Virus record (IMG/VR): IMGVR_UViG_2864926767_000001
DNA length: 64,000 bases
Reading direction: 5' to 3' (one strand)
Origin: a virus
The notes below the pieces were generated by a model. The model saw only the letters and a program-made list of their open reading frames with translations, did not search any database and had not been told where the DNA came from. Made by a program: the position numbers and the translations under genes. The number at the start of each line of letters is the position of its first letter. The stretch's first letter is position 1. Shown here one piece after another: positions 25 to 56,647 of this stretch.

Positions 25-68
25 CTGTACCTCAAATCACGGCTAGATCACCGTGATTTGAGGTACAG
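25..68. repeat. Perfect 18-bp inverted repeat CTGTACCTCAAATCACGG-N8-CCGTGATTTGAGGTACAG (two copies of the dispersed 16-mer)
   Basis: Arms read directly at 25-42 and 51-68. Confidence 0.9.
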
Positions 69-85
69 ACTCCCCCCTCAAAACG

Positions 86-113
86 AAAACCGCCAGGCAA
101 GCCTGGCGGTTTC
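86..113 (-). terminator. Intrinsic terminator downstream of nrdA
   Basis: Hairpin AAACCGCCAGGC-AA-GCCTGGCGGTTT with T-run on the minus strand, 13 bp after the stop. Confidence 0.75.
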
Positions 114-125
114 CTTGCTGAGGCC

Positions 126-2783
<2,658 letters not shown>

Positions 2784-2900
2784 CCCTTTTGTGTAAGCGC
2801 TGCGACCATCGCAGGCGCCCTAAGCCCTGCCCGGAAATCCAGGCGAATCATCTCCGCAATATATCACTAAAGGAGTCTCGCTCAGCAACCGCTCAAACCC

Positions 2901-3566
2901 TCACTTAAGCCCACGCATTAGGAAGTGAAATGGCTTCCAGACGCCCACTTGAGCATCCTGTGCCCGCTTCTGCGCGGCTTGCAGCTCTGCAGCGCTTGCA
3001 TGGTCACCGAGGCCGGCGGGAGCGCCGGGAACGGCGAGGCCCTGCTCCAGCACAGTGACCCCAAGGCTCACACCGTTGTGGTCTACGAAGCTGCAGTACG
3101 GCACCACTCTGTTGCTGTACGCCCCATAGCAGGTGAACTGATACGTGTGCCCGGCCGCCATGGCATCGATCTTGGCTTCAGACTTACCTGCATAGTCATC
3201 ATTCATCAGGTCTTTGGAGGTGTCTTCGCCGAGCTGCGGAATCTCCAGGCCGGCAATCCGGATCTGGATGGCCAAGGGATTTTCGCGGTAATTGTTGCTG
3301 TGCGAGACGTCCAGGTACTGCTTTACGGCAGCCCTGCCTTGCGTATCTTCTGGGTATGGGAGCACCCAGTACACCAGGTTCCCGGCCGGCGCCAGTACGT
3401 CGCCTATGAAGACCAGGGGGTCTTTGAAGGGTTCAGGGTCACCCAAAGGCTCCACCCCAGCCCAAGCAGGTTGGGTGCCGGCGGCTACTGCAATCCCAAG
3501 GCATTTCAGGAGGGTTCTCAACTTCACAATAAGTACACCCTGCAAAATCTCTAGTGATATGCTCAA
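2901..3566 (-). CDS. Exported thermonuclease (SNase)-like protein, probably degenerate; true start likely about 3527
   Basis: Signal-peptide-like N-terminus; IRIAGLEIPQ, LEQGLA and AQKRAQDAQVGVWK match SNase motifs. Confidence 0.6.
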   Translation of the reverse strand: MSISLEILQGVLIVKLRTLLKCLGIAVAAGTQPAWAGVEPLGDPEPFKDPLVFIGDVLAPAGNLVYWVLPYPEDTQGRAAVKQYLDVSHSNNYRENPLAIQIRIAGLEIPQLGEDTSKDLMNDDYAGKSEAKIDAMAAGHTYQFTCYGAYSNRVVPYCSFVDHNGVSLGVTVLEQGLAVPGAPAGLGDHASAAELQAAQKRAQDAQVGVWKPFHFLMRGLK

Positions 3567-3579
3567 AGTTGTCTGACAG

Positions 3580-7922: not shown

Positions 7923-10028
7923 GTGATAGATCCCAAAGACGGACTTCGGATAACTCTCAAGAAATACTTTGGCTTTGACGAATTGCGGCCAGGCCAAGTG
8001 CCCATCGTCGACTCGGTGCTCAACGGTCGCGATATCCTGGCGATCTTGAAGACATCTGGGGGCAAAAGCCTCTGCTACCAGTTGCCGGCGATTCATCTTG
8101 GCGGAACCACGATTGTTATCAGTCCGCTCATTTCTTTGATGAAAGACCAAGTTGAAGCCCTCGATAAAAAGGGGATTTCAGCAACATTTGCCAACTCGTC
8201 AATTCCTGCCGGAGAAATGAGACTTCGGTATGAGGGACTTTCCAAAGGGAAGTACACCCTCTTTTACATTTCCCCAGAGCGGATGAAAGACCCAGAGTTC
8301 CTCGGGGCTCTGATCCGGTCACCTGTTCGCGTCTTCGCAGTGGACGAAGCTCACTGCGCCTCCCAATGGGGTCACAACTTCCGCCCTGCCTATGCCAAGG
8401 TCGGTGAGTACCTGGACGAGATCGAGGACTACCTGCAGCGTCCGATCCAGCGCCTGGCGTTCACGGCGACCGCCAACAGCAAGGTGCAGGAAGACATCGT
8501 GCGAATGCTGCGCCTCAAGGCCCCTGAGGTGCACATCCAGGACTTCGACCGGGACAACATCACCTATTCGGTCATCCCTTGCGCCAACACCAACCGCTCG
8601 GACGATGTCTTGCGATTGGTAATGGAACACCCCGAAGACTGCATCATCGTCTACTGCGTGACGGTCAAAGAGGTGGAGAAGGTCTGCCACTACCTGCAGG
8701 ATTTCGGGGTTCAAGCGAACCGTTACCACGGAAAGCTCCCCACCGACGAAAAGAACCAGATCCAGGAAGACTTCCTCAACGACAAGATTCGCGTCCTGGT
8801 GGCCACCAGCGCCTTTGGAATGGGTGTCGACAAACCCAACGTGCGCTTGGTAATTCACCCCCAGATGCCGGGCTCAGTCGAGGCGTACTCCCAGGAGTCG
8901 GGCCGCGCTGGACGTGATGGACTGCCGGCGAAAGCCATCCTGCTCTATCACCCGAATGACCGATCCATCCACGCTTACTTCATCGGGGTGACCAACCCCA
9001 ATGGCGCCAAGATCGAGCCCATCAAGCGGGTTATTGGAAAGATCCTGGTGAATGGGCCCGCGCCACTGAGCTTCAAGCACATCAGCCTGCAGGCCAGCCG
9101 GCAGCAGTCGATCATCAACTCCGTCCTGGAGGGCCTCAACAGCTCCCAGAGCGACATCAAGATGGTCGACGTCCAGGCCACCGTTGGCATGCTTGTGAAC
9201 CAGGGTGAACTGGAGGTCTTCGAGGGGGTGTACACCCTCGCCAATTGGCAGGATGACTCCGACTACTACTGGATCGAGGAAGTACGCAAGAACGACTGGA
9301 GCAAGCTCAGTGCCATGTGCAACTGGTGCGAGACTAACCTCTGCCGGCGCTGGACGATGCTCCGCTACTTCGACGAGCGTAAACCCATCTACCGCTGTGG
9401 CATGTGTGACAACTGCCAGCGGGAATCACTCTCTCAGCTCGCAATAGGGCCGCTAGAGAAGACGGTACGCACCAGCACCCTGATCAACCTCGCAAAGAAC
9501 CTGCAGCCTCTGGTGGGCGCTGAGGGCAGCCGCTGGCTGCACGTATTGCTGGGGACACTCTCTCCCGACGAGCTCACGCCAGGAGAGCAGGAAGTGTTCG
9601 GACGATTCGCCTGGAACGCTGTCTCAGACATTCGCCGTTGGCGGGACATGCTGGTCGAGCGGGAGATCCTCACCCAGGACAACGCCCTCACCGAGCAAGG
9701 GCACCTCTGGATTGACGGCAAACTGGTGATCGAGCCACGTTCTGTACCTCAGATCACGGTTGAAACAGGCCGCATCGTTTCAATCCAGGAGGTTGAGCAA
9801 CGCATGAAGGTGCTCAAGGCCTGGCGTAAAGCAACCGCTTACCGCGAAGACTGCGCCGAGATCCAGATTTGCTCCGAAGCCCAGCTCAAGAAGATCGTCG
9901 TTCTGGACGATGTTACGGAGTCCAGCCTGACCGGCGCCGGGTTTAACCCTTCTTGGCTCCGAAAGTATGCTGGAGGGGTGACCTTAGCCATCAGCAAAAT
10001 TCCGAAGGCCGAAGATGTATCAGCGTAA
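7923..10028 (+). CDS. recQ: RecQ family helicase
   Basis: SGGKSLCYQLP, DEAHC, TATA, AFGMGVDK, QESGRAGRDG, Zn motif CRR..CGMCDNC, HRDC-like tail. Confidence 0.93.
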   Translation: MIDPKDGLRITLKKYFGFDELRPGQVPIVDSVLNGRDILAILKTSGGKSLCYQLPAIHLGGTTIVISPLISLMKDQVEALDKKGISATFANSSIPAGEMRLRYEGLSKGKYTLFYISPERMKDPEFLGALIRSPVRVFAVDEAHCASQWGHNFRPAYAKVGEYLDEIEDYLQRPIQRLAFTATANSKVQEDIVRMLRLKAPEVHIQDFDRDNITYSVIPCANTNRSDDVLRLVMEHPEDCIIVYCVTVKEVEKVCHYLQDFGVQANRYHGKLPTDEKNQIQEDFLNDKIRVLVATSAFGMGVDKPNVRLVIHPQMPGSVEAYSQESGRAGRDGLPAKAILLYHPNDRSIHAYFIGVTNPNGAKIEPIKRVIGKILVNGPAPLSFKHISLQASRQQSIINSVLEGLNSSQSDIKMVDVQATVGMLVNQGELEVFEGVYTLANWQDDSDYYWIEEVRKNDWSKLSAMCNWCETNLCRRWTMLRYFDERKPIYRCGMCDNCQRESLSQLAIGPLEKTVRTSTLINLAKNLQPLVGAEGSRWLHVLLGTLSPDELTPGEQEVFGRFAWNAVSDIRRWRDMLVEREILTQDNALTEQGHLWIDGKLVIEPRSVPQITVETGRIVSIQEVEQRMKVLKAWRKATAYREDCAEIQICSEAQLKKIVVLDDVTESSLTGAGFNPSWLRKYAGGVTLAISKIPKAEDVSA

Positions 10029-13296: not shown

Positions 13297-13319
13297 TGTA
13301 AAGGAATCGCTCCATCTCC

Positions 13320-14147
13320 GTGATCTTGGGTACGGCAGCCCGTCGAGGCGACCGAAGGGGACGTGATAATTACAGATTAATTGACAGAGTGGAAGTGAAT
13401 CCGCAGACTCCCTGCCTGCTCCTTTTCCATTATATTGTCGGTCTCGTTGTGTCACCTTCCGATCCCGTAGCCAGGCGCGAACAGCTAGCCATCTGGACGG
13501 CCCACCAGCCGTTGGCGAAGGCTCTCGTCCGGGAGAAGTGTGCCTTCAACCCCAGTATCGCCAAGGATGCGCTCCAGGAGGTGCAGCTTGCCCTCTGGGA
13601 GGCTACCCTCGAGCGGGATGTAGAGCTGGGCGACGCCTTCGCGGCCTTTGCCCACAAGCGAATGAGCCGGCGGCTCATCCACTTCCTCAGATACCTCGTC
13701 GAGGATAAGCCCAAGCTCTCAAGCCGCGAGCGTGAGCTGATCAAAGCCATTCGAACACGCGTGCGCGCCGGCACCGCACTCAACACCCTGATCATCAACG
13801 AACTCAGCCAAGAGCATGGTGTGGGCATGTTCAGGATCGTTGTCTTGCTCAATACCTGGGTGCACAACATGTCGGCGTACACGGCTGATGCGCACGCGAC
13901 TCTCGATAGGCTTTCATCGGAAGAGCCGGATTTCGATGTGGATGATGAGCACCAACTCCTTGAGTTGGAGCTGGCCTTAGCGAAGCTCAACGAACGTGAG
14001 CTTGAGATTATCCAGGGCCGTTACCTGCAAGACCCCAATTCGACACTGGCTGAACTGGCGGCGCGCTTCAGCATTACCCCCCAGCGCGTTCGGCAGATCG
14101 AGGTGGCAGCCATTGGGAAGCTAAGATCGCTGCTTCCCGCCGGCTGA
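13320..14147 (+). CDS. Sigma-70 family factor (RpoH-like region 4); true start likely GTG 13449
   Basis: Region 2 DALQEVQLALWEA..FAAFA; region 4 LNERELEII..TLAELAARFSITPQRVRQIE. Confidence 0.8.
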   Translation: MILGTAARRGDRRGRDNYRLIDRVEVNPQTPCLLLFHYIVGLVVSPSDPVARREQLAIWTAHQPLAKALVREKCAFNPSIAKDALQEVQLALWEATLERDVELGDAFAAFAHKRMSRRLIHFLRYLVEDKPKLSSRERELIKAIRTRVRAGTALNTLIINELSQEHGVGMFRIVVLLNTWVHNMSAYTADAHATLDRLSSEEPDFDVDDEHQLLELELALAKLNERELEIIQGRYLQDPNSTLAELAARFSITPQRVRQIEVAAIGKLRSLLPAG

Positions 14148-14156: not shown

Positions 14157-15002
14157 CTATCGCCCTTTCCCGAAAATGCTCAGGATCTCTTCTTTCGAGG
14201 CCTGACGATCAGTATCCTCCTCCTGTACCTCGGATCGCGGTTCTTCCAGTGAAGACCCGTCATAGAGCCATGTGCGGTACATGGCCTTGAACCGCTCTTC
14301 CAGTTCACGAGTACTTTTACCGTTCTCGCGTTTCTCAAAGCCCCCTGCCCGACCAATGGCCTTGCGCACCAGCGGGTGGAGGTCTGTCCCCGAATGGGCG
14401 CTGATTGCCGAGAACCATGCCTCTTCGATGATTGGCACGCCCCTGCGGCTGGCCTGAACGGCATCCAGGAACTGGGTGGAGTTTGGCGCAAACACGCGGA
14501 AGGTTGGGCAGTTGGTGATCGCGTGTTCTGCCTGCCGGATTTCCTCTGGAGTAGCAGACATGCTTTCCAGGTCGGCGATCCACACGCGTTCCCTTACCAG
14601 GGACTCGATGGACATTTCTGTTTTCCAGCGGGCGTAGCAAACCCCGAATTTGACATCCACGTGGGCCCAGGCCTGGCGGACGCTCTTGGCGTATTCGTTG
14701 TACGGATAACACTGCACCGTACCCGCAAGCTGAACCACCGTTTCCATACTGGGAGGAAATTTTACGAACGGGGCCAACCCGGTTCCCATCCACTCTCTCA
14801 GCTGTATCAGGGTCTCAAGCGTAATCCCTGCGAAAACCAGCTCAGCAACGAGATTCGGCAGGTAGGTGTTGCTCACCCCGAGCTGATCCTCCACCAACTT
14901 GATGTTGTACCTGGTGGTGAAGTGCTTGTAGAGCTTGGCGGCTTCAGCCAACAGCTTGGGGTAGAGTTCTTTCTTTTGCTGTTCGTCCTGCATGTTCGCC
15001 AC
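14157..15002 (-). CDS. Putative lambda P-like helicase loader
   Basis: PFVKFPPS motif and HPLVRKAIGRAGGF..ELEERFKAMY resemble the lambda P family C-terminus; coupled to an O-like gene. Confidence 0.45.
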   Translation of the reverse strand: MANMQDEQQKKELYPKLLAEAAKLYKHFTTRYNIKLVEDQLGVSNTYLPNLVAELVFAGITLETLIQLREWMGTGLAPFVKFPPSMETVVQLAGTVQCYPYNEYAKSVRQAWAHVDVKFGVCYARWKTEMSIESLVRERVWIADLESMSATPEEIRQAEHAITNCPTFRVFAPNSTQFLDAVQASRRGVPIIEEAWFSAISAHSGTDLHPLVRKAIGRAGGFEKRENGKSTRELEERFKAMYRTWLYDGSSLEEPRSEVQEEDTDRQASKEEILSIFGKGR

Positions 15003-19976: not shown

Positions 19977-20930
19977 CTACGAGACAGCTTCGACGCTGAA
20001 GAACTTTGCTAGCACTTCCATCAAAGCGTCGTAACGATCTTTTGGCAAATTTTCTTTACTCACGACGAGTTTGAGCTCGGTAGGAGTAACAGTCATATCG
20101 CCGACTTGAACGCCTTCATGCTTGATTACATGGTCAACGTTTACTTTCTGTCTTTTTCTTCTGGACTTAGGCGGCCCAGCAATAGCCGAAAGACGCCTGA
20201 TAATTTCAGCTCGGCTAGAGATTTCCTTCCTGCTGTACAGTTTTATGCACTCCAAAAGCTCAGAGGTGATGCTCTTCTTTTTTTCTGCATCCTCTTCGTT
20301 AGCGCTGTACAGATTGGTGATGTACATGGCCTCGTTACGGCCAAGTGCAGATGGGTAATCTGCTAGGGCATCTTTAACGACATCTGGCAAATTTCCGAAT
20401 CGGACATACTTAGTCCAATCCTCATAAACAATACACAAACGCTGACGAATAGTGTCTTCGTCTTCGTGCAGCTTCTGGAGGTTATCAATACCAACCCAGA
20501 TCTCAAAGTCGTAGGTTCGTACACGGCCGGCGTTCTCGGTCATGCACAAGTAAGCCATGTCCCGATCCGAAACGATCCTGATCACAGCCTTGACCGGGAT
20601 TCCCAGGGCCTTACAGGCACGCCAGCGACGCTCACCGAAGATGATCTCGTAACGCCCGTTTTTCTTGCGGACGCCGATAGCTTGTTGCTGTCCGTTTTCT
20701 TTGATCTGTGAAGCAAGAGCGTCGATTTCGTCCTGATCGAACTTCTGCCTGTTTTGGAATGGGTTAGGGATACAGAGTTTGTTGTCCAGCTCTTGTACCG
20801 TTTCGTTCTCCATGGCCTCGTCAGTTTTAGTATATTGCGAGGCATAGGTTGAAACGGAAGGCTTTCCTTCTACAGGAGGTGTCGCTCCGCCCTGAAGATG
20901 GGCTTGAAGCCCAAGTTTTTTACTGGCCAT
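19977..20930 (-). CDS. parB: ParB/RepB/Spo0J partition protein
   Basis: NPFQNRQKF, LASQIKENGQQQAI, IIFGERRWRA, TENAGR. Confidence 0.92.
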   Translation of the reverse strand: MASKKLGLQAHLQGGATPPVEGKPSVSTYASQYTKTDEAMENETVQELDNKLCIPNPFQNRQKFDQDEIDALASQIKENGQQQAIGVRKKNGRYEIIFGERRWRACKALGIPVKAVIRIVSDRDMAYLCMTENAGRVRTYDFEIWVGIDNLQKLHEDEDTIRQRLCIVYEDWTKYVRFGNLPDVVKDALADYPSALGRNEAMYITNLYSANEEDAEKKKSITSELLECIKLYSRKEISSRAEIIRRLSAIAGPPKSRRKRQKVNVDHVIKHEGVQVGDMTVTPTELKLVVSKENLPKDRYDALMEVLAKFFSVEAVS

Positions 20931-21798
20931 TTACTACCCCCCTTTGGGTGAGCTGCATGTCGTTAATGAGGTAATCACCCAGCTCATTGTATTTTTTCGA
21001 CAGCAAACTACCCGGATTCTGCTGAATCGCGAATTGTTTGAAGTGAGTTCCCTCTTCCACTTCCACACGGTGAGGGATGTAATGCTCAAGGCGCGGTATC
21101 CCAGCGAGCATCTTTTCTTTCAAAAGCTCCCTGGAAAGAGCTGTGCGGGTATCAACTTTATTAAGAAGCACACCGCAGATCTTGAGGTTCTCGTTAAGCG
21201 CAACAGCTTCGTTGAACTCTTCAGAGCTAACGAAGTTTTTCAGGCCATCAATCGCATAGCCGCTTTGGTCAACCACATAAAGGATATGGGTGGCCAGAGA
21301 CATGATTACTTTCGCGGCGTGATCCATTGCCGGAGTAGCGTCGATGATGATCACGTCGAATGGTAGTTCGGTCTGCTCTTCATCAAAGAGTACTTCGAGC
21401 TTTTGGGTCAGCCTGGAAACCAGTTCCACCAGAGCGCGAGGATCTTGTGCGATCCGGTTGATGGTGTTGCGCAGGCCCGGCTCTGCCGGAATGACATGAA
21501 GGTTTTGGAGTCGAGTGTGATTGAGGATGCAATCCTCAATTTTCATGTCTTTCTGGGAGATCAGATCAGAGAGCGGGAAACAACTCTCCCCCGATTCCGG
21601 ATCACGAAGATGATTTGTGCTGTTCATCGATTCGTCGAAGTCGATGAACAGAACGCGACGGCCTTTGCTTGCAAGCACAGCCGCTTCGTTGATCGCGGTG
21701 CTCGTCTTCCCCACCCCGCCTTTGTTGTTTGCAAACGCGAGAATTTTTGCTGTGCGGTTACGGAGAACGTTCGTGACAGCGTTCAGCGCTTGATTCAT
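20920..21798 (-). CDS. parA: ParA Walker-type partition ATPase
   Basis: NNKGGVGKTST, VLFIDFD, FDVIIIDATP. Confidence 0.93.
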   Translation of the reverse strand: MNQALNAVTNVLRNRTAKILAFANNKGGVGKTSTAINEAAVLASKGRRVLFIDFDESMNSTNHLRDPESGESCFPLSDLISQKDMKIEDCILNHTRLQNLHVIPAEPGLRNTINRIAQDPRALVELVSRLTQKLEVLFDEEQTELPFDVIIIDATPAMDHAAKVIMSLATHILYVVDQSGYAIDGLKNFVSSEEFNEAVALNENLKICGVLLNKVDTRTALSRELLKEKMLAGIPRLEHYIPHRVEVEEGTHFKQFAIQQNPGSLLSKKYNELGDYLINDMQLTQRGVVNGQ

Positions 21799-22981
21799 GT
21801 CCTGCTTCCTTGATCTGACGTCTAGTTATCGGTCTGTGCGTAAGAATATACCTTTTCTCTAAGGATGCGTCAAATCGTAAGGTAGACATTTTTCTCTAAG
21901 AAAGGTGACGCACGATCTTACAAGGCTTGTCATCTGCAAAATGCAGTGCCCTCCCCTACTCCGTCGAATACCAACCGAGGAGCTCGCGTCTCACCTTGCC
22001 TCGGCTTTCTGCAAAATGCAGTTAAAGCTAAGCGTTATCCGTGCCTGGTTTGACTAGCCCGTGGTTCTAGAGTTCACGGATTAGCGAAACGTATGGGCTG
22101 GCCAGCTGCTCCTGTTGCTTCTGCATTTTGCAGTACATGAGGCAAGGCAGATGATCGAGTGTCGGATCGAAATCGCAGCTACCGTCTTGCTCTAGCAACC
22201 GATCTGAGATCATCGGTCGGTGACGCGTAGGAAGTCCTGTCTTGACCTGGTTATTAGCTTCGGTCGTGAGAGCCGATTGATATCGCTTCACTCAACTCGA
22301 CAAGACTTGAGTGAATCTCCCGGTTGCGAACTGCAAAATGCAGAAGCCCTGGGGCTCGATAGACGTAAACGAAAAGTAGTCAGCAAGGCCCGGATGCCAT
22401 CAGGTTGGGATTGGTCACCCGGCCTTGCAGTTATACCGTTCCTTGGATGTGGAACTCGAAACATAACTCACCTTGGAAAGTGAGTTTTCGAGATGAGGTT
22501 TCTATGTCTTCGCCGAGCGATATCCAGAGCCTGGATTATCGACCTCTGGAGAATGCAGTAATCGTCTACCTTCTCGCCCGGTATGGCATCGGCATTGAAG
22601 GGTTTCTTATCGCCCGATGTAATGCTTTCTGCATTTTGCAGAAGATCACTGAGAGGCTTTGGAAGGGATGATGCTACTCAACAAATCTTCGTGGGTAAGG
22701 CCGGCGCTGAGCTCTTGAAGTGAGGGTTCTGCAAAATGCAGAAAGTGGCGAGCGCGAGAGGCTCTGCATTTTGCAGAAAGTCCGATTCGAGCCATCTATG
22801 AACCCCCAGGGCTGAGTGTTGGAGGCATCGGGTCTAGAGAACCTCTACGGAAGTCCCAGGGTTTCATTTTGATATCACGGTTGACCCCGCCATTTCCCCG
22901 AACCCCATGCTGGTCATTACGGGACACCTAGAAGCGAAACAGCCGGCCGACATGAAATCCTTCTGTCGTTGCAAGACTCCA

Positions 22982-23103
22982 GGAGAAGCTGGAGCTGGAG
23001 CTGGAGCAGGAACTGGAGCAGGAACTGGAGCAGGAACTGGAGCAGGTGCAGGAACTGGAGCAGGTGCAGGAACTGGAGCAGGAGAAGGAGCAGGTGATGG
23101 TGC
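22982..23103. repeat. Hexamer-based tandem repeat (GGAGCT/GGAGCA/GGAACT/GGTGCA), about 20 units
   Basis: Read directly; 12- and 18-bp higher-order units. Confidence 0.9.
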
Positions 23104-24723
23104 GACCAGGGCTTGTTTTGAGTGCTAGGTTGTCCAGGGAGCTGCGTGGCGGAATGACTAACCATAGACAGAGTAGGCGTGGCAGGCTAATGCATCGCCT
23201 GATGAGAGGTCGGGTCAGGGCAGACAGTAATGTCCTCGCGGCCTGCTCAAAGAACGCCACGCTCCGAGAAATGGAGGGGCCTTGTTCGACTCTCCTGAGC
23301 AAGGGCAAGCGTCTCTTCGTGCTCTTATTGCATGTCTGGACGCCTTCTCAAGGTGGGCGAGGCGCAGCAGTCAGCTTCGCGTTTAACCAATACCTGCAGT
23401 CGACGGAGCACCGACTTCTGCATTTTGCAGAAGGAGCAAACTGGTTATATATCCGCAAATAAACGGATTTCTGTCATTTTAGTATCAAATTCTACATATG
23501 AATCCCGATATTTATCGTCATTTCTTCTTCTGCATTTTGCAGAAAAAGCCTTCTCAGACGGCGCATCCATCTCCCTGAGACCCATGATCTGGGTTCTGCA
23601 AAATGCAGAAATCCTCGCGTTTGGCGGGTTCTGCATTTTGCAGAAACTGCCTCGTGTGACTTCTGCATTTTGCAGAAGCAGGTCGATGGGGCTGGCTCCT
23701 TTGGGGCTGGATAGTTTCTGCATTGTGCAGAATATTCGCAATGCGACCTCCCTTGAGCGGTTCTCGCCAGCAGTTCGGCTTCGCCTGCTTTGCATCTTTA
23801 GAAGGTTCCGCATGCTTGTCGGGAGTCTTCCAAATGAGGTGATGATCTACTGAGGGTGGGGTGTTGTTTCTGCAAAATGCAGAAAGAGTCTCGCGTCTTG
23901 GAGTCTTCTTGCGGCGTACTGTTGGAGGGATGGGTTGGGTGTCGTTCGTTTAGCGGTTGGTAATCTTTTTTGTTACTGGCTTTAGTGGTGACTAGGTTGC
24001 CTTCTAAAGGTGTCCGCTTTGGCTTGTGGTACGCCTTAATGTTCCTGTCTTCTAATCGTGTATAGGTGTGAAGGATCTTTCTGCAAAGTGCAGAAGAAAA
24101 ATTGACCCGTCCGCTTATTGATAGTGGTCGCTCCGTAGCGCGTGTGTCCTTGGCTAAAGCCTGTTGTATTTGAATTGCGCCGCCATCAGCTAAGCGAAAT
24201 TCCATATGAGAAGAGTGCTCCTGGGGTGGGTTAGATGCGTGGTCAAATTCTTATGTTGTTGTCCATTATCTATCGGTTCGCTTTGAAGGTCGTGCCATGG
24301 TCGTGAGCTTAAGGGTTCTGAAATCCGATCTCCGTCCATCGCTATGGTTAGTCCCTGGGTTTGTCGTTAGTTGTTAGCGGTTTTGGCTTTGGATAGGGCC
24401 GATGTCGTGAGCGGTTGTAGTGCAGGGCTTTGCGTTGGGTGAGGTGCTTATTTCTGGTCTATGGGGTGTTAGATGTTGATAGGAAAACTGAGGAGGCCCA
24501 GGAGGTTAAGTGCCGGGGTGGTTAGCCCCTTTCTGTTATTCGCCTGGAACAGACGTGTTTGATAAGGCTTCGCTACTTGATGGCCAATGAGTCATGCATA
24601 GAAGTCTTTGACTGATCGCTTGCGAAGAATGCATCTCGGGATCACTCGCTGAGAGGAGAGCGCAATCCTGGGTGATGGCAGGGAGGAGGAGGGGAGGCTT
24701 GACTCAAGACATTGTTTGCATGG

Positions 24724-24739
24724 CTGTACATGTATACAG
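24724..24739. promoter_or_regulatory. LexA (SOS) box
   Basis: CTGTACATGTATACAG = CTGT-N8-ACAG with AT-alternating core. Confidence 0.7.
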
Positions 24740-25348
24740 CCTAGGCTTCTGCATTTTGCAGAACGTCAATTTTGAAGGCACGGTTATGCTTGTTCGCATC
24801 TTGAAATGTCGCGGAGAAACACCTTGCGGTTCTGTCAGATTTTAAAATCAGAAAGCCTCTAAGGGGTGGCGCGATTCAGGGTGGAGCTTGAAGATCTTGA
24901 TCATGTGAAAACCCGAAGCTCCGTTCCGGTCTGACTGAGCTTCTGGCTGAGTTGGAGGAAGAGGCGCGGATCAGCTAACCAGGGTGATCATGGGTTATGT
25001 GGTGGGTAGGGTGGTGGGGAGTGTTCGATCTTCTGATGGAGGGGGCTTTTTTTTGGGGGGTAGGTGATCGAACTCGGCTCGAGGCCAGGCGCTGTGAGCA
25101 TATTGTGGTGTGTAACCAGTGTGCAGGTACATTAATCCAGATTTGTTAATCGTCGAAACCACTGTATTAATTGACATGTTGTCAAGTTTGATTACTTCAC
25201 CTACTGTGTTGGATATCAAATGGCTACACAGAATCAACTGCCTGTTCTGTGTAGCTAAACCGTAATGCGTTGCCTGGATACACAATCACCAGCAGCTCTA
25301 TTACGGGGATTGCCAGTCATTCTGTGTTACCAAAGTAGGATTTGAGCT

Positions 25349-47948: not shown

Positions 47949-50627
47949 TTATCGGCGTCCTGAGCCTGACCCTGGCCTAGCTGACCCCCTGGCAGAGCCC
48001 CCGGAGGACTTACTGCCGGCTGAGCCGCCAGACGAGGAACCGCTCTTGGAATCCTTGGCATGCTTATCCAAGAATTGCTTACAAGCGGCGTAGCTTTCAA
48101 GCACTTCAGGCCCAGGCTTCTGATCGTCAGCCAGCCTCTCTATGATCTTCTTCGCGAAGTTGATCATCGCCTGCGTCGGCGGATTCTGACCCTTGGCCTT
48201 GTCGTAGGCGGTTTTGTGGGCCTCGATGAAGGCGGATACCTTGGAGCGGTCTTTCTTGTCCTCCTCGCCTATCTTGATCCCCAGGGCTGCCTCGATCTTG
48301 GACACGTAGTCGATCTGCGCGTCACTCGGAGCACCCGGCGCACCGCCGGCCTCCCCAGGTGCCTTACGCTTGATGCCGTGCTCATCCAGGAAGGCCTGGG
48401 CCTTCTTCGGATCAGATAGAGCACCAGACGGAACCTTGATGTTCTTGCGCTTGCAGACCGACTGGATGAGTTCTTTCAGCTTTGGAGTTACGACATCAAG
48501 CTCACGCGGAAGAGGGGCGAGGCCCGCGTCCTTGTACTTGTTGTTCATCCAGTGGATGTAGTTCTCGATCTTCGTGATGGTCGCATCGACGAATTTGGCC
48601 TGGAACTGGAGGGCCTCAGTATCGTCCTCGATTTCCACCAGCTGGGCCAACTGGCCCTCCCACTCTGCTGTGGTTTCGATCCTGTACATCCACTCGTGCC
48701 CGTTGTCGCACTGGTAGCGGATGTACTCATCGCCTTTCGGTTCACAGAAGATGTTCCCCTTGTCGCGCACGTCGATGTAGCCACGGGCACGAAGGTTCGG
48801 CAGAACCGTCTCCCTGGTCGAAGGCGTACCGATCCCCTCGGGCTTGTTAACGCCGTCAGCCAAATAGGCACGCATCACCGGGTCGTCGACATACTTGGCC
48901 GCTTTAAGCAGCACTTCTTCGAAGGAGCCTTCGTTAAAGCGGTTCGGACACTTCGTCTTACTCTCGACCAGCTCGACTGCGGTGAGCGGGACAGGATCGT
49001 TCTTCTCCAGTTTCTGGAGAATGACATCGTCTTTCTTCTTCTCCGGAGGGAAGAAGGCCATGTAGCCAGGATCGATGAGACGGCGGCCCTGAGCTTTAAA
49101 CACGGCATAGTCATGACCGAGCAGATCCTTCGTGGGAACCGCGATGGTGATCGTCTGGGTCGCTACGGTTGCCGGAGGCAGGTGTGCCTGGACGTAGCGT
49201 TTCGCGATCAGCTGGTAAGCAATACGCATGTGCTCGGCTGTGTGCACGATGCGATCCTTTACCTTCATATTCGGTCGCATCGCTGCAAGGGCCGCTGCAT
49301 CGACCTTGCGGTTCGAAGGAATGATCCCCCAGTGCTCAAGCTTCTTGTTGGGCGGCGCATAAGAATCAGGCAAGAAGGGTTTGTACTGCTGATCCTTGCC
49401 ATCGTGGATGGCCATGGCCTTGTTCGCCGCTTCCGTGATTCCGGGTACATCCATCACGTTGTTGAAGCGCGAGTTACGCTCTTCGGGCGCGTAGAAGCTC
49501 TGCGGAATTTCTTTCTTGTCGGTACGCGCGTAAGAGGTGTAGCCCTGCAGATAGAGGTCTTCGAAGACCGCCTGGGCCTGCTCGCCATTGATCTTCGTGG
49601 CCTTGATCAGAAGCGACTTGGCTTCAACCAGGTGGAAGGTGCCATCCGGATTGTCGGACTTGATGGCCTCTTTGTAGTCGATAACGATGGCACGATGGGC
49701 GTTTTCCATGAGGCGACGTTTAAAGTCGTCGACCATGGCTTTATCCGCCCACAGCGGTTCATCCAGCTGCTTTTTCTCAGCGTTACCGCGAGGAACCCAA
49801 AGGACACCCTTGGGCTGGGAGTCGATGATTTCCTGGGTGACTTTAGGGGCGTACTCGATGTGGGTGAGGGGGGTACCCTTGACGTCGAAGTCACCGAAGA
49901 TGTTGAAGAACGGCTGTGCGACGAAGTTCTTGATCTTCTGCTCTTGCAGCCAGATCAGATAGAGGGCGGCGCCCTGAACCCGGCCGCTGGAGACAACCGA
50001 CTCACGCTTATTCCCACGCCCAAGGTAACGACCCATTGCGCCACGGCGGGCCCAGTACGTCATATCCCGAACCAGGTGCATGTAAGCCCGGTCGCAGAGG
50101 CCGCGTGCCTCCGCAGAGCGATACCCTGATTTCTTTACATGACCAGGAAGCAGATTCGTGAAGGCCTTGTCGACCGATACCTTGTCGTAGCCTTCAGAGA
50201 GCCACAGGCGTTCGACCTTCCCCTTGAAATTGAAATGCTCGATGATCGCCCAGCCGATCCACTCACCCTCTCTATCAGGGTCAGTTGCGATAACGACGCT
50301 ATCAGCATCCTTCAGGACGCTGCCGATTCGCTTGAGGCGATCCTGAGAAAGCTCCTTGTTGGAGCCATCCGGTTCTTCAATCACCGGAACGGTCTTCACC
50401 GCTCTTGGAATAGGTGCGAGGGCGAACGGATTTTCCCACCCGAGGCCTGGCGTGATCTCATCCGGATCCAGGTGCCGGGTAAGATGGCCTCGCGCCCATT
50501 GCATGACGTACAGGCGACCTTTGTGCGTACCCTCGTAGCCTCGATTCGTTCTTTGCCAGCCAAGGGCTGCTGCCAGGTCTTTTGCCTGGGGGCCCTTCTC
50601 GCAAACTACTGCTGTGTAAGACGACAT
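47949..50627 (-). CDS. topB: Type IA topoisomerase (TopB/TraE-like) with C-terminal helical repeats
   Basis: CEKG, ARGHL, ATDPDREGE, SSGRVQ, catalytic SYARTD, GIGTPSTR; repeats PSDAQIDY and PTQAMINF. Confidence 0.9.
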   Translation of the reverse strand: MSSYTAVVCEKGPQAKDLAAALGWQRTNRGYEGTHKGRLYVMQWARGHLTRHLDPDEITPGLGWENPFALAPIPRAVKTVPVIEEPDGSNKELSQDRLKRIGSVLKDADSVVIATDPDREGEWIGWAIIEHFNFKGKVERLWLSEGYDKVSVDKAFTNLLPGHVKKSGYRSAEARGLCDRAYMHLVRDMTYWARRGAMGRYLGRGNKRESVVSSGRVQGAALYLIWLQEQKIKNFVAQPFFNIFGDFDVKGTPLTHIEYAPKVTQEIIDSQPKGVLWVPRGNAEKKQLDEPLWADKAMVDDFKRRLMENAHRAIVIDYKEAIKSDNPDGTFHLVEAKSLLIKATKINGEQAQAVFEDLYLQGYTSYARTDKKEIPQSFYAPEERNSRFNNVMDVPGITEAANKAMAIHDGKDQQYKPFLPDSYAPPNKKLEHWGIIPSNRKVDAAALAAMRPNMKVKDRIVHTAEHMRIAYQLIAKRYVQAHLPPATVATQTITIAVPTKDLLGHDYAVFKAQGRRLIDPGYMAFFPPEKKKDDVILQKLEKNDPVPLTAVELVESKTKCPNRFNEGSFEEVLLKAAKYVDDPVMRAYLADGVNKPEGIGTPSTRETVLPNLRARGYIDVRDKGNIFCEPKGDEYIRYQCDNGHEWMYRIETTAEWEGQLAQLVEIEDDTEALQFQAKFVDATITKIENYIHWMNNKYKDAGLAPLPRELDVVTPKLKELIQSVCKRKNIKVPSGALSDPKKAQAFLDEHGIKRKAPGEAGGAPGAPSDAQIDYVSKIEAALGIKIGEEDKKDRSKVSAFIEAHKTAYDKAKGQNPPTQAMINFAKKIIERLADDQKPGPEVLESYAACKQFLDKHAKDSKSGSSSGGSAGSKSSGGSARGSARPGSGSGRR

Positions 50628-51281
50628 TTACTCTATAAACCTCAGCTTCTTCTGTCGAGTGTCTATCGTGATGACCCTCGACTCTGGTTGTGCCCTCAAG
50701 GAAACCGGCGCCTGGGCGGAGTAGGGGCGGGCTACCGCGCCTGGGTCTGCCTCAATCGCCGCTTCGAGAGCAGCAAGCGAAGGAATCGACGTGGCCACAC
50801 GAAGGGAGCGACCCCAGTTCGTGGTGCGCCCCAGCGACTCGCTCTCTCTACCGACGCGGATGCCCTCGACAAGGCGCGAATACGCAGTAACGGCCTTTTC
50901 GAGGTAAGTGCGTCGGACACTCGGGGTTTTCGAGTGGTAATTGCCGATGGCCACCCAAGCCTTGCCCTCGTTGTCCGTCATGTGACGGGAGAGCAGCCAG
51001 GTGCCGGCCATGATGTTCTTGCAGGGGTTGTAGACCAGATCCCGCGCGGTGTACCCGAAACGACGGAAAATATCGACCAGGTGGGTCGTGTTGATCTGCA
51101 TCGGGCCCATGTCGAACGAATTGTCGGTGTTCTTGCGGATCGTGCCGATCTGCCCGCCCTCTACGGCCAGGACAGTCTTGGTCATAATCGGGGCGACATT
51201 CGGGAACTGGGCCTGGGCCACCGCGATGCACTGGTTGATCTGCATCAGGTCGAGCGGGACTTCGGGAGGTAGATCAGCCAC
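50628..51281 (-). CDS. Lytic transglycosylase (SLT; PilT/VirB1-like)
   Basis: AVEGG, DMGPMQIN, PCKNIMAGTWLL, AIGNYHSKTP. Confidence 0.88.
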   Translation of the reverse strand: MADLPPEVPLDLMQINQCIAVAQAQFPNVAPIMTKTVLAVEGGQIGTIRKNTDNSFDMGPMQINTTHLVDIFRRFGYTARDLVYNPCKNIMAGTWLLSRHMTDNEGKAWVAIGNYHSKTPSVRRTYLEKAVTAYSRLVEGIRVGRESESLGRTTNWGRSLRVATSIPSLAALEAAIEADPGAVARPYSAQAPVSLRAQPESRVITIDTRQKKLRFIE

Positions 51282-52213: not shown

Positions 52214-54355
52214 GTGAGCAAGCCGCAGACCACGCACGAGAAGCTTTTGCAGCTCCCGGAAGAGGAACGCCGGGCTTACTTGCTGTCCGACCTTAACCCC
52301 GAGCAGTACGAGGCCGCGACCACCATTGAGGGCGCGGTGCTCAACCTTGCCCCGCCCGGCGGCGGCAAGACCAAGACCATGACCAGCCGCGCGGCGAACA
52401 TGCTCTTGTCCGGCATTCTGCCGAGCAACCTGCTAATGATGACCTTCACCAACGAAGGGGCCGCCGAGCTGAAGACCCGCCTGGAAAACATGGTGGGGCC
52501 CAATGCCCAGCACATCACCGCCGGCACCTTCCACAGCATCATCTTCCGACACATCCTTCAGAACTACGCCGACCACGAGTACCTGAAGAGCATCGACCTC
52601 AACATGGCCGAGTGCGTCATCCTGGATGACAAGGAGAGCAAGACGCTCTTCGATGAAGCCATCAAGTCCCTGGACGAGACTTCTCAGGAGCTTCTGAAGG
52701 AGTCCGACTGGGCAAAGCGTATACCCAAGGAAATGGCTGCCGCCCGCGCACACGGCAAAGACGTAGAACGCTTCAAGCAGGATATGCTGGGCAATGGCGA
52801 CGAAAACGAGATGCTGTACCGCATCACGGTCGACGTCTGGCGTGCCTACACCAAGCTGTGCAGGGATGCCGGCGGCATCGACTTCGACGACATCCTGGTC
52901 GTAGCGAAGAACCTGCTACAGAAAGACCCGAACGTATCGTTCGAGCTGGCGCAGAAGTGGAAGTACATCATGCTCGACGAGTATCAGGACACTAACCCTG
53001 TCCAGATGAAGATCGTCGACGAGATCGCTCAGCACCACGGCAACCTCTACGCAGTGGGTGACGACAAGCAGTCGATCTATGGTTTCCGTGGTTCGGACAT
53101 CGAAGTGATCATGGGCTTCATCCGTCGCTACCCACACGCCAAGCTCATCGAGATGAACCGGAACTACCGGTCGACGCCGAACATCCTGGCGGCGGCAAAC
53201 GCCCTGGCGGCCTGCATGACCCGGAAGCTCGGAGAGGGCTTCATGGTACCCGGCGATGAAAAGCGCTGGAGGGACACCCAGGGCCAGGAAGTTGCCATGG
53301 TCAGCTTCGAGCGTCAGCAGGATGAAGCGGAGGTCGTCGTTGCTGCGATCAAGCGCGACATCGCTCGTGGCCAGAAACCCAAGGACATTGCCATCCTATA
53401 CCGCTCGAGGACTTGCAAGGACGACATCGAGAAAGAACTGGTCAAGCAAGGCGTCGAGTACCGTATCTCCGGTGACATCAGCTTCTTCCAGCGTGCCGAG
53501 GTCAAGAACGTCGTTGCGCTGCTGCGCACCACTTACCGCCCGTGGGATTCAATGGCAGTTCTGCGCGTGCTGGATAACACCAGCTTCGGAGTATCGGGCA
53601 TGGCCGCCAAGAAGGCCATGAAGCCCAAAGCCGGCGAGAAGGGCAGGACTGCCATGGCCTACCTAGAAGAGTGCGCCACCAAAGTCCGCGCGGACAAAAC
53701 ACCAACGGCCGTCGCCGAGAAGGTCGGCCCGTTCATCAAGTCCATGCGTTCCATTCGCCAACTTGCCGCCCTGGGCGAGGACGTTGAGTACCTCCGGGGT
53801 GCCTTTGAGCGCCTGTGGCAGTACTACATGCTCCCGAACCTGAAGCGCGCGGCTTCCAAAGACGATGACGCCATCGACAGCGCAGTCGAATCGCGCATGC
53901 TGAACGTGCAGCACCTGCTCGACCGCTTCTATGGCGAAGTAGAAAAGGGCCGCAAGCCAGAAGATATCCTGGACGAGCTGTCCTTGTTGGGTGAGGCCAC
54001 CCGCGACAACTCGGCGAACCCAGATGAGTCCATCCAACTGATGACCATGCACGCCTCCAAGGGTAAGGAGTTCCCGCATGTGTACGTGGTGGGCTTCGAC
54101 CGTGACTCGACCCCCGGAGAAGAGCCCTCTGAAGAGGATATGGAGGAAGAGCGCCGGATCGCATTCGTAGGGATCACCCGCGCCATGGAAAAGCTAGTGA
54201 TGACCTACCCCAAGCTCAAGTACAAGCACGGTGGTGAGGTGAAAACTACAGCTTCCCCCTGGGCTATTGAGATTGCGGAGGGCACCGGCAAGCCTATTCA
54301 GAACTGGCGCCGGCCGGCGCCGAAGAGGGAGTCCTCCGGGCCATCGGTCTACTGA
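52214..54355 (+). CDS. uvrD: UvrD/PcrA-like SF1A helicase
   Basis: GGGKT, TFTN, GTFHS, LDEYQDTN, VGDDKQSIYGFRG, NYRST, TMHASKGKEF, FVGITRA. Confidence 0.93.
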   Translation: MSKPQTTHEKLLQLPEEERRAYLLSDLNPEQYEAATTIEGAVLNLAPPGGGKTKTMTSRAANMLLSGILPSNLLMMTFTNEGAAELKTRLENMVGPNAQHITAGTFHSIIFRHILQNYADHEYLKSIDLNMAECVILDDKESKTLFDEAIKSLDETSQELLKESDWAKRIPKEMAAARAHGKDVERFKQDMLGNGDENEMLYRITVDVWRAYTKLCRDAGGIDFDDILVVAKNLLQKDPNVSFELAQKWKYIMLDEYQDTNPVQMKIVDEIAQHHGNLYAVGDDKQSIYGFRGSDIEVIMGFIRRYPHAKLIEMNRNYRSTPNILAAANALAACMTRKLGEGFMVPGDEKRWRDTQGQEVAMVSFERQQDEAEVVVAAIKRDIARGQKPKDIAILYRSRTCKDDIEKELVKQGVEYRISGDISFFQRAEVKNVVALLRTTYRPWDSMAVLRVLDNTSFGVSGMAAKKAMKPKAGEKGRTAMAYLEECATKVRADKTPTAVAEKVGPFIKSMRSIRQLAALGEDVEYLRGAFERLWQYYMLPNLKRAASKDDDAIDSAVESRMLNVQHLLDRFYGEVEKGRKPEDILDELSLLGEATRDNSANPDESIQLMTMHASKGKEFPHVYVVGFDRDSTPGEEPSEEDMEEERRIAFVGITRAMEKLVMTYPKLKYKHGGEVKTTASPWAIEIAEGTGKPIQNWRRPAPKRESSGPSVY

Positions 54356-54455
54356 CGTACCTCAGATCACGGTAACCACACCCCATCGCAAAGAGCCGGA
54401 GACGGCTCTTTCGTTTTGATCCCAACCAGCACTTTCCCTGTAAAGGACGCTTGAA

Positions 54456-54752
54456 ATGCAAAAGAACGACTTGGCTGCGACCCTGGTAGCTCTCAACGAA
54501 CGCGCTCAGGCCACCCGCGATAAGGAGATCAGGCTCAACGCCACTCTGGAAAGCACCCAGGCACAGCTAGCAGCGCTCGAAGACGAGATGATGAAGAAGT
54601 ACGGGACTTCCGACCTGGCCACGCTGCGCCAGATGTTCGAGAAGGCCCGAGACGAAGACTCCCGCGCCATCCAGGACTTCGCGAACACCATCGAGATGCG
54701 CGAAAACCTGTTGAACAAGGTCGCTCAGGATCTCGAAGGCCAACGCAAGTAA
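54456..54752 (+). CDS. Small coiled-coil protein
   Basis: 98 aa, all-helical heptad pattern, AAGGA SD. Confidence 0.75.
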   Translation: MQKNDLAATLVALNERAQATRDKEIRLNATLESTQAQLAALEDEMMKKYGTSDLATLRQMFEKARDEDSRAIQDFANTIEMRENLLNKVAQDLEGQRK

Positions 54753-54766
54753 GCAGGGGACACCCC

Positions 54767-56647
54767 ATGATCAACACCAGGGAACTGGAGCAAAGCGTTC
54801 GCCAGACTGCGATGAAAGAGACGCAGATCGGTGAGCGCTATCGCATTGCCGAGGCCCGGCAACTGCAGCTGTGCCAAGAGATCGAAGACGTAGACGCCAT
54901 GCTGTCGCGAAAGGACGATGTCCTGCGAGCGATCCACCAGGTGACCCTGTCCGCCCAGGCCCGTAACAAGGGGCTTTTCGAGGACATGCTGACCGACCTG
55001 GTCAACACCGTGATGCCAGGCAACGTCGACAAGATCGTCCTCACTTCGCGCATGCGCAACAACAAGGCCAACCTGGACTTCGACGCCATCGTCGGCGGCC
55101 GGCTGCGCAACATCGACAAAGACCTGGGCGGCTCCATCGCCAACCTGACGGCCATGGGCCTGCGCTTCATCGTGCTGGCGCGCCACCCGAACCGACGCGT
55201 GCTGTTCCTGGACGAGTCCGACTGCCACATCAACGAGGCCTACACCTCGGCTTTCGCCGCGTTCATGCAGTACCTGTCGCAGAAGATCGGCATCCAGGTG
55301 GTCTACGTTAGCCACTCAGACCCTCGCCACTTCGCGGGCCATGGCCGCGTCCTACAGCTCAACGTGGTCAACGGTAAGTCCGCATTCAAGACCATCGCGG
55401 AAGAGCCCGAGCCGGATGAGGAGTACGAAGCACCGGAGAGCGCGCTGCGCTACATCCGCCTGCAGAACTACGGCCCTCACGAGAACATCATGGTGGAGCT
55501 GTCCCCGCGCCTGACCATCATCACCGGGGACAACAACAAGGGTAAGAGCAAGTTCATCCAGGCCATGCTCGAGCTGTGCACCAACAGCGGGGAGGAAGGG
55601 CGTATCCGCGACGACATGCCGTACTTCGAGGTTGAGGTCGGCATCGAGGAGGGCATGAGCATCCTCTGGAAGTACGAGCGCAAGGGCAACAAGAAGACCT
55701 CCATGGTGCTTCGCGACGCCAATCTGACAGTGGTTGAAGAGTCTGACTCGGGCACTGGCGTGCCTGAGTGGCTGCACACCTACCTGAGCATGGCTCCGGT
55801 GGAAGGGCAGAACATCAACTTCCAGACCCAGAAGCAGCAGAACTTCATCCTGAACAACGAGATGTTCACCAGCGGCCAGCGCGCCATGCTCCTCCCTTTG
55901 GGGCGTGAATCGCGGGACGTGATGCGCATCAACCAGATGTTCAACGAGAAGGTGACCGAGGCCCGCTCCAAGCGTGTTTCCCTGGAAAAGGAGCTCAACG
56001 TCTACCAAAACCAGCTGGCGATCATGTCTCTGGTGGTTCAGAACCCCTATGACCCACTGCTGATGCAAAGGCAGTGCGCTGAGATTCTCGAGGCCCTGGG
56101 CACCCTGGAGAGCATGGAGGCAGACCTCAAACGCCTCGAAACCCTTCAGTCAAAGGTCACTATCCTCGACGAGGCTGACGGGAAGCTGTCCCGTGTACCT
56201 GCAAACACGGTCAAATTGATGGCCAGTGACGAGCTGGCCACCGGGATCAATCAGATCGAGGTGCTGACCCGGTGTATTGGTGGCCTCAAACAACTGGCGG
56301 AACTCCCAGCAATGCGTGATGCCCCGGTACTTCAGGTGGAATACCGGAACGAGATCGGACAGGCAGGCGCCAAGCTGAAGAAGCTACGCGAGATGGTGTC
56401 CGCGCTGGGCCAGCTGAGGGATCTGAAGCCCGCAGACGTACCCAAGATCACGGACACCTCAGAGCTCCAGGACAGCATTCAGCGCTTGGCGGCCAGCCAT
56501 ACCAGCCTTGAGAAGTCCCGGACGGAGCTCACTGCCTGCCAGGAAGAGATGAAAAGGATCGAGACCCAACGGGCTGAGTTGCATGAAGCCCTGGGCGGCG
56601 TCTGCCCAACCTGCAATGGCCCGTTGAAGGAGCATAGTCATGACTGA
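54767..56647 (+). CDS. Circularly permuted Rad50/SbcC-type ABC ATPase
   Basis: Signature LGGS, Walker B VLFLDES and H-loop VSH come before YIRLQNY and Walker A GDNNKGKS; CPTC hook at the extreme C-terminus. Confidence 0.8.
   Translation: MINTRELEQSVRQTAMKETQIGERYRIAEARQLQLCQEIEDVDAMLSRKDDVLRAIHQVTLSAQARNKGLFEDMLTDLVNTVMPGNVDKIVLTSRMRNNKANLDFDAIVGGRLRNIDKDLGGSIANLTAMGLRFIVLARHPNRRVLFLDESDCHINEAYTSAFAAFMQYLSQKIGIQVVYVSHSDPRHFAGHGRVLQLNVVNGKSAFKTIAEEPEPDEEYEAPESALRYIRLQNYGPHENIMVELSPRLTIITGDNNKGKSKFIQAMLELCTNSGEEGRIRDDMPYFEVEVGIEEGMSILWKYERKGNKKTSMVLRDANLTVVEESDSGTGVPEWLHTYLSMAPVEGQNINFQTQKQQNFILNNEMFTSGQRAMLLPLGRESRDVMRINQMFNEKVTEARSKRVSLEKELNVYQNQLAIMSLVVQNPYDPLLMQRQCAEILEALGTLESMEADLKRLETLQSKVTILDEADGKLSRVPANTVKLMASDELATGINQIEVLTRCIGGLKQLAELPAMRDAPVLQVEYRNEIGQAGAKLKKLREMVSALGQLRDLKPADVPKITDTSELQDSIQRLAASHTSLEKSRTELTACQEEMKRIETQRAELHEALGGVCPTCNGPLKEHSHD

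Follow-up and report, generated by a model that had tools for sequence, protein, structure and literature searches.

Iterons and initiator sites lying outside an origin are already known kinds of element. Extra iterons outside the minimal origin lower the copy number of plasmids, as in incA of P1 and incC of F. Near ori2 of Vibrio cholerae chromosome 2, five outlying iterons of the initiator RctB were reported by Baek and Chattoraj in 2014; these sites bind RctB, inhibit ori2 plasmids and were read as titration sites that are duplicated early (PMC3937223). DnaA boxes outside oriC (datA, DARS and the B. subtilis clusters) tune initiation, datA being origin-proximal, and control of replication through the elongation phase is not known for plasmids (PMC3937223). 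In this study, a 16-mer was analysed that occurs repeatedly in a 64,000-nucleotide stretch of DNA (IMG/VR record IMGVR_UViG_2864926767_000001, hereafter the window). In an original prediction made from the window alone, it was described as a replicon-wide protein-binding site dispersed inside and between genes. The 16-mer is very probably the iteron of a megaplasmid's TrfA-like initiator (Rep); unusual here are the number of sites and the extent to which they are embedded in coding sequence. No paper was found that describes iterons or outlying initiator sites for TrfA-type Pseudomonas megaplasmids.

Repeat array beside a TrfA-like initiator gene

The window corresponds to G000:C1:133,034-197,033 and is part of the 450-kb contig C1, which has a GC content of 57.5%, compared with 64–68% in the large contigs of the same genome. 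Together with 12 further low-GC contigs, C1 sums to 981 kb, and its gene order recJ, nrdA, recQ, rdgC, sigma, parBA is syntenic with that of the 904-kb plasmid pBASL58 of the pMPPla107 family. These features identify the window as part of a low-GC Pseudomonas megaplasmid of roughly 1 Mb.

The motif GTACC-N4-ATCRCGG, with 12 fixed bases, was searched as GTACCNNNNATCRCGG. Exactly 8 matches were observed in the window and none in 100 dinucleotide-preserving shuffles, in agreement with the prediction that far less than one copy is expected by chance. Alignment of the copies gave the fuller consensus (T/C)GTACC(T/C)-V-R-R-ATCACGG(T), and the predicted YNRR-like bias of the spacer (T/C, then C/G/A, then A/G, then A/G) was also found. 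The 16-mer is asymmetric and two-part, without dyad symmetry, and its two conserved blocks lie about 10 bp apart from centre to centre, corresponding to about one helical turn.

In the 7.58-Mb genome, 29 exact copies were detected. All except one were on C1, and 27 fell within C1:84,229-207,414 (123 kb), while 33 other species genomes of the genus contained 0–3 exact copies each. A weight-matrix scan gave 53 matches of at least 12 bits on C1; in the other plasmid-like contigs (531 kb), neither matrix matches nor exact copies were found, and the rest of the genome showed only weak matches of 18 bits or less, which is chance level. The enrichment over the host genome is thus borne out, whereas the term replicon-wide is not, as 27 of the 29 exact copies occupy 123 kb of a replicon of about 981 kb.

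The densest group of copies was located 27 kb to the left of the window, at C1:105,836-106,720, where 11 exact and about 8 degenerate copies form an array in a 1.2-kb gene-free stretch. This array lies between a rep gene and the next open reading frame (ORF), directly upstream of rep. The rep gene (C1:104,584-105,708, minus strand; 374 aa) has a Pfam TrfA match of 6e-12 and is the sole TrfA match in the genome, in which no match to the Rep_3 profile was found. As the array lies directly upstream of the only TrfA-like rep gene, the site is taken as its iteron. The cognate protein, left unnamed in the original prediction, thus has a candidate in Rep; the 16-mer is most probably a protein-binding site, as had been proposed, and the suggestion of a site for some unnamed organiser does not hold, since the array adjoins rep.

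Copies on the same strand of the array are spaced by 21, 32, 33, 41, 41, 42, 52, 54, 62, 63, 74, 95, and 188 bp. The array is helically phased: 13 out of 14 same-strand spacings deviate by at most 1.5 bp from a multiple of 10.5 (P about 9e-7). It is interrupted by an AT-rich 60-bp segment (62% AT). No convincing DnaA boxes were seen by eye beside it. We read the array as a candidate oriV.

An AlphaFold (AF2) model of Rep, built from 21 homologues with a predicted local distance difference test score (pLDDT) of 72, matched domains 2–3 of RctB (E 4e-7) as well as many RepE54-iteron complexes. A sequence search for solved structures similar to Rep gave none, the match being by fold only. The assignment of the 16-mer to Rep is thus drawn from adjacency and fold and from the co-variation described below.

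Just downstream of rep is a 294-aa ORF (G000:C1:103607-104491, minus strand) with a sub-threshold Pfam Tus/Ter match. It contains an iteron near copy at C1:103637 that is unchanged despite 14% local divergence. The only homologue found for this ORF was the copy of a close relative, no PDB sequence match was obtained, and a single-sequence model was unusable (pLDDT 36).

The nearest relative of Rep is the TrfA-like protein of IncP-2 plasmids, with 43% identity. Among 5.8 billion proteins, none outside the plasmid's own cluster exceeded 45% identity to Rep, and megablast of the rep-array region against PLSDB gave no matches. Every relative examined has a two-part repeat array upstream of its own trfA-like gene, each with a different sequence. 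The repeat is CGCTCA-N4-AWTCCGG(T) in IncP-2 plasmid pRBL16 and in G010:C3, GTACC-N5-CTTCG in G226:C18 (sharing the GTACC half with the motif studied here), and GYWCA-N5-HTCCGGT in pBASL58 (29 copies, some ending in ATCACGGT like the motif studied here). Two metagenomic contigs of about 1 Mb carry GCWCA-N6-ATCG; these were read over 10 kb on either side of rep, and the four other replicons were scanned whole.

In the four replicons scanned whole, 4–8 copies of the respective motif lie outside the array, at distances of 1–95 kb, against 0–2 per strand for reversed-pattern controls. There are 7 such copies in pRBL16, within 16 kb; 8 in G010:C3, 7 of them within 19 kb; 5 in G226:C18, 13–55 kb away; and about 5 in pBASL58, 4–85 kb away, where 1 is expected from the control. 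The motif studied here occurs only 0–1 times in pBASL58, pPL1, and pRBL16, and rep is the only gene that stays beside the arrays in all relatives examined. With arrays and outlying copies of their own sequence in the relatives, and the motif studied here nearly absent from them, the motif tracks Rep, and origin-proximal outlying copies are a trait of this Rep clade, of which this plasmid is an extreme case.

Further observations were made in this comparison. Plasmid pPL1 of P. silesiensis (NZ_CP143488.1, 1.17 Mb) has the RecQ closest to that of the window (53%), and the clade profile detected no TrfA-like gene in it; replication modules seem to be swapped within the megaplasmid family. A P. 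aeruginosa record of 847 kb that matches nrdA was not taken as a relative, as it carries host-type nrdAB. IncP-2 plasmids carry about 30 two-part repeats upstream of the trfA-like gene, for example at NZ_CP015879.1:89600-91300. Replication of IncP-2 plasmids has been attributed to a different RepA with three 17-bp repeats, TrfA being mentioned in passing (PMC9537497), and the TrfA-like module may represent a replicon that has been overlooked in this family of resistance plasmids. In the 3 contigs of G010, the reversed control pattern (CATGG-N4-TAGYGCC on the other strand) occurred 9 times, compared with 0–3 times elsewhere, and may be another over-represented site.

Outlying copies inside and between genes

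When counted at a score of at least 17 bits, about 28 outlying iterons, 16 of them exact, were found across C1:84-207 kb. Of the 17 exact outlying copies on C1, 16 are found between −22 and +101 kb relative to the array. Their matrix scores are as high as those of the array copies (up to 33.2 bits), although the matrix was built from all 28 exact C1 copies, array and outlying alike, so that the two sets of scores are not independent. A further trio lies at C1:317.6-318.8 kb; in this 1.2-kb segment (C1:317623-318829), 212 kb from the array, 3 copies (1 exact) fall in 3 ORFs without Pfam families, and the segment may be a distant satellite of the Rep system.

Between 20 and 22 of the 28 outlying copies are inside genes, with two borderline copies at gene starts. 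About 10 are in the sense and 12 in the antisense orientation, in all three phases, and the host genes include ligA, a secA-like gene, the gene for the type IV secretion system (T4SS) coupling protein, recQ, topB, and a Rad50-like gene. The remaining 6–8 are intergenic, compared with 11% non-coding DNA; they include an inverted pair at window positions 27-66, a trio at C1:123,905-123,981 upstream of the ORF C1:122,483-123,805, a copy between rdgC and a sigma-factor gene, and a copy following the uvrD stop codon.

Twelve exact, fully intragenic copies were observed in the 110 genes of the zone, compared with a mean of 0.43 (maximum 3) in 300 synonymous-codon shuffles and a mean of 0.023 in codon-order shuffles. 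The enrichment therefore withstands a codon-preserving control, and the description of the motif as a DNA-level site inside and between genes, on both strands and in all frames, is most probably right. Occurrence in sense and antisense and in all three phases also rules out a peptide motif as the explanation. A restriction-modification target was ruled out by reasoning, on the 12 fixed bases and the clustering.

Half-sites were not enriched beyond the full sites, and no polarity was found around the array, orientations being mixed on both sides. Grouping of the copies is weakly supported: 10 gaps measure at most 1.3 kb where 5.6 would be expected, with P 0.02 when near copies are included and P 0.18 for exact copies only. 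Scans for consensus sigma-70-like promoters at three intergenic sites showed no overlap with the copies; the plasmid has its own sigma factors. The variable spacers differ among copies, and the flanks share no sequence that would indicate copying. Point changes have created the outlying copies within coding sequence or in short intergenic gaps.

For the 8 copies in the window, the predicted coordinates and strands were all reproduced, as were the gene contexts in recQ, topB, and the Rad50-like gene and after uvrD. The first two (27-42, plus strand, and 51-66, minus strand) are arranged head to head as the left and right arms of a perfect inverted pair, which is located between the stop of nrdA and the start of recJ. 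The 16-bp arms are separated by an 8-bp spacer, the right arm lies 69–93 bp upstream of the recJ start, and the copy at 51-66 is the top-scoring copy of the genome (33.2 bits). The copy in recQ (9744-9759, plus strand) is in sense, in phase 0, and encodes V-P-Q-I-T; it sits in a poorly conserved linker before the HRDC domain, beside a 4-residue indel relative to RecQ of pBASL58, and is kept in the relative L039. Also kept in L039 are the next two copies. One (13318-13333, minus strand) was placed at the divergent starts of rdgC (minus strand) and a sigma-70-family gene (plus strand), because the RdgC domain of the long ORF starts at residue 54 and rdgC is called with 294 aa in relatives; this agrees with the predicted location. 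The other (14225-14240, plus strand) is an ATCGCGG variant, antisense in ORF 14157-15002 (minus strand). This ORF gave no Pfam match, and its earlier label of P-like gene was not confirmed.

In topB, encoding a topoisomerase III-like protein, the copy at 49433-49448 (minus strand) is in sense and in phase 0, and is absent from the topB allele of a close relative. The copy at 54357-54372 (plus strand) begins one base past the uvrD stop, upstream of a terminator-like hairpin (54390-54411), and the copy at 56438-56453 (plus strand) is in sense and in phase 0 in the Rad50/SbcC-like gene; both are kept in the relative L040. The latter copy and that at 13318 are the identical 16-mer, as had been noted. 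The near copy predicted at 56195 (56195-56210, plus strand), in the same Rad50-like gene, has one mismatch, with AACACGG for ATCACGG; it scores 17.1 bits, is kept in L040 and is a probable weak site. A doubtful weak copy at 51051-51066 (plus strand), with 2 mismatches and 15.3 bits, may be due to chance.

Conservation was examined mainly with the Logan assembly DRR294288, which contains a plasmid 95–98% identical over three stretches; L041, being 100% identical to the window, was uninformative. In the DRR294288 relative, 11 of 12 comparable outlying copies are kept, the lost one being that in topB, and the site at C1:94,622, a near copy here, is exact in the close relative. Among 176 site positions, a single change was found where the divergence of neighbouring DNA would predict 5.2 (P 0.08), and the array iterons differ by 2.4%, compared with 5.0% for the spacers between them (P 0.07). 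Conservation in relatives, named in the original prediction as a check, is thus seen in the count of kept sites and falls short of significance; the tests are suggestive at most because the sole close relative is too similar.

The topB region (window 47949-50627) is 39% diverged from L040:3192-5861 over about 2 kb, while the flanks are 97–98% identical. This suggests allelic replacement by recombination, which would have removed one iteron.

Origin position, proposed mechanism, and alternatives

The cumulative GC skew of C1 decreases over roughly the first 120 kb, stays level as far as about 205 kb and increases beyond it, so that the iteron zone (84–207 kb) coincides with the trough. The minimum, at about 153–158 kb, is at parAB and a separate palindrome array. 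About 20 copies of the palindrome TTCTGCA-W4-TGCAGAA lie at window positions 21900-24800, by parA (20920-21798) and parB (19977-20930), in an ORF-poor stretch of 49–52% GC with strong positive GC skew; this cluster is probably the centromere (parS array). The 16-mer had been regarded as distinct from this palindromic cluster, and this distinction is most probably right, the palindrome being of a different sequence. The same ORF-poor, par-proximal region contains a 12-bp tandem repeat (GCTGGAGCAGGA-like, about 12 units) at window positions 22964-23107.

By analogy to RepE and its iterons, Rep would consist of two winged-helix domains and bind an iteron as a monomer, with one domain on each block of the motif, as suggested by the RepE-iteron structure. 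Outlying iterons would bind Rep outside the origin and, being origin-proximal, would be duplicated soon after initiation. The duplicated sites could then sequester Rep as an initiator sink, handcuff the origin iterons, or both, and thereby damp re-initiation, so that a presumably single-copy replicon of about 1 Mb would be held to about one initiation per cycle. Experiments have demonstrated such a role for the five outlying RctB iterons near ori2 of V. cholerae chromosome 2 (PMC3937223). Rep iterons with outlying copies that restrain re-replication form the explanation we favour overall and consider probable; for the part of it that makes the outlying copies negative regulators by titration or handcuffing, we would put the chances at about even.

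Several points weigh against this explanation. Rep binding is inferred from adjacency, co-variation and fold, and the sequence does not separate titration from handcuffing, gene regulation or domain organisation. Conservation of the outlying copies, at P 0.07–0.08, is suggestive, not decisive, and the relatives have far fewer of them (4–8), so that the large number here could be lineage-specific. The main caveat on the array as sole origin is its offset from the skew minimum: at 106 kb, it is on the left shoulder of the trough, about 47 kb left of the minimum, and the skew is negative over 106–120 kb. Smith and Baltrus in 2019 placed the origin of the family near parA by skew, and their paper makes no mention of TrfA or iterons (PMC6482414). 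Initiation may also, or mainly, take place elsewhere than at the array; alternatively, the region may have been rearranged. The recJ-to-parA block is inverted relative to pBASL58, and this inversion may blur the skew; rearrangement, a second origin near parAB, and broad initiation are candidates for the flat trough.

Several other explanations are possible for the outlying copies. They could be Rep operators, the initiator acting as a transcription factor that couples DNA-metabolism genes (recJ, rdgC/sigma, the uvrD-Rad50 operon and the T4SS coupling protein gene) to its own level. Autorepression by Rep dimers takes place at inverted iteron repeats, and the excess of intergenic copies (6–8 of 28 against 11% non-coding DNA), the inverted pair upstream of recJ, the trio upstream of C1:122,483-123,805, the copy at the rdgC/sigma starts and the many neighbouring genes acting on DNA would all fit such a role. 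It is nevertheless unlikely: about three quarters of the outlying copies lie deep in genes on either strand, and no sigma-70-like promoter covers the scanned intergenic copies, which is weak evidence given the plasmid's own sigma factors. Moreover, different plasmid lineages do not have their copies at the same positions, and the relative's topB allele is without the copy, which fits selection on number rather than place. Binding by a protein other than Rep, such as a KorB-, MatP- or SlmA-like global regulator or organiser of the origin domain with the array as its nucleation centre, is improbable. The zone-restricted scatter does resemble parS or matS domains and the plasmid encodes many uncharacterised DNA-binding candidates, but only the trfA-like rep stays beside the arrays in all relatives, the motif changing along with it; moreover, the motif resembles iterons in its asymmetry, two-part structure and helical phasing, and a palindromic array exists separately at parAB. 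An equally improbable explanation is that the outlying copies are functionless, either as by-products such as gene-conversion patches from the array or as weakly deleterious sites drifting in a plasmid of low effective population size. The non-significant conservation (P 0.08), the site missing from the relative's topB allele and the relatives with few outlying copies would agree with this. Against it, 12 fixed bases occur at least 16 times in 123 kb and not once in the other 860 kb or so, which is unexpected without selection or a directed process, the differing spacers and unshared flanks give no sign of copying, and the same excess near the origin is seen in four lineages whose motifs differ.

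The trough of the skew also bears on whether the outlying copies are dormant or alternative initiation or Rep-loading sites, with replication starting across a broad zone. The skew is flat over about 120–205 kb, the part of the zone right of the array, and the sites form small groups of 2–4 (the excess of short gaps at P 0.02). Single iterons in genes, however, are without the AT-rich unwinding element or the multiple phased iterons that known iteron origins need, and the inversion relative to pBASL58 explains the flat skew equally well, making such sites very unlikely. Least credible is a role as Ter-like polar fork barriers, with the product of the 294-aa ORF downstream of rep as the binding protein. 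Ter sites are likewise asymmetric and dispersed, and the protein has a Pfam Ter match of E 0.0014 and 18.2 bits; this is below the 22-bit cut-off, the orientations are mixed on both sides of the array, and a dense two-orientation array beside rep is unlike a Ter arrangement. Furthermore, the ORF was not found in G010, G226, G181, or pRBL16, and the pattern of an array plus outlying copies is nonetheless present in G010, G226, and pRBL16.

A wider proposal can be attached to the favoured explanation, restraint of re-replication by Rep iterons, in tentative form. A conjugative 1-Mb megaplasmid might have independently evolved chromosome-style, elongation-coupled replication control, in which dozens of coding-embedded sites serve as a Rep sink or as a handcuffing network; the same sites might, in addition, fold the origin domain or, as hinted by the flat GC-skew trough, license a broad initiation zone; and the number of outlying copies might be a tunable copy-number and incompatibility trait in TrfA-type megaplasmids, including IncP-2 resistance plasmids. 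Taken as a whole, this proposal is rather unlikely to be right.

Comparison with known initiator sites

The results name a likely initiator and origin for a megaplasmid family in which GC skew had been the only guide, pointing to an origin near parA (PMC6482414). They also give a recognition code for a clade of TrfA-like Reps that is represented in the clinically important IncP-2 plasmids as well. Should the outlying copies serve as an initiator sink, replication control through the elongation phase would extend to plasmids, and a natural intermediate between plasmid and secondary-chromosome control would have been found. The system also offers a clean test case for DNA-binding sites overlaid on coding sequence, and the motif is a lineage-specific marker for the replicon and a predicted incompatibility determinant.

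KorB operators (OB), matS, SlmA SBS and parS are palindromes bound by dimers. With these, the 16-mer has in common multiple dispersed copies of one site, some of them zone-restricted. The likeness to KorB operators and matS/SBS organiser sites drawn in the original prediction is not sustained, as those sites are palindromic, whereas the 16-mer is without dyad symmetry, is the repeat unit of an array beside rep, and is accompanied by a separate palindromic array on the same plasmid. Like DnaA boxes, it is an initiator site found outside the origin; it differs in the initiator and the nucleotide-switch chemistry, and the DnaA box is a short 9-mer occurring genome-wide, whereas the 16-mer is confined to one zone.

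The resemblance to RK2/IncP, with TrfA and the 17-bp oriV iterons, and to the iteron plasmids F (RepE), R6K (pi), and P1 (RepA) lies in a TrfA-family rep beside phased, asymmetric direct repeats with an AT-rich element. Rep is only about 22% identical to IncP TrfA, the iteron sequence is unrelated, and the array is larger (about 19–30 copies). In classical iteron plasmids, moreover, the extra iterons adjoin the replicon, whereas here they lie up to 100 kb away in genes. The IncP-2 plasmids (pRBL16, pOZ176 family) are similar in the two-part design, CGCTCA-N4-AWTCCGGT compared with GTACC-N4-ATCACGGT, and in having outlying copies, which lie within about 16 kb; the half-site sequences differ, and those outlying copies are fewer and closer.

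Chromosome 2 of V. cholerae is alike in that sites identical to the origin iterons are scattered in an origin-proximal span, in that the replicon derives from a plasmid and measures about 1 Mb, and in that RctB domains 2–3 are the best structural match of the Rep model. The initiator here is TrfA-like and not RctB, and no site of the 39-mer or crtS type was seen. There are several-fold more sites here (about 28), mostly in coding sequence, and they are carried by a transmissible megaplasmid rather than a domesticated chromosome.

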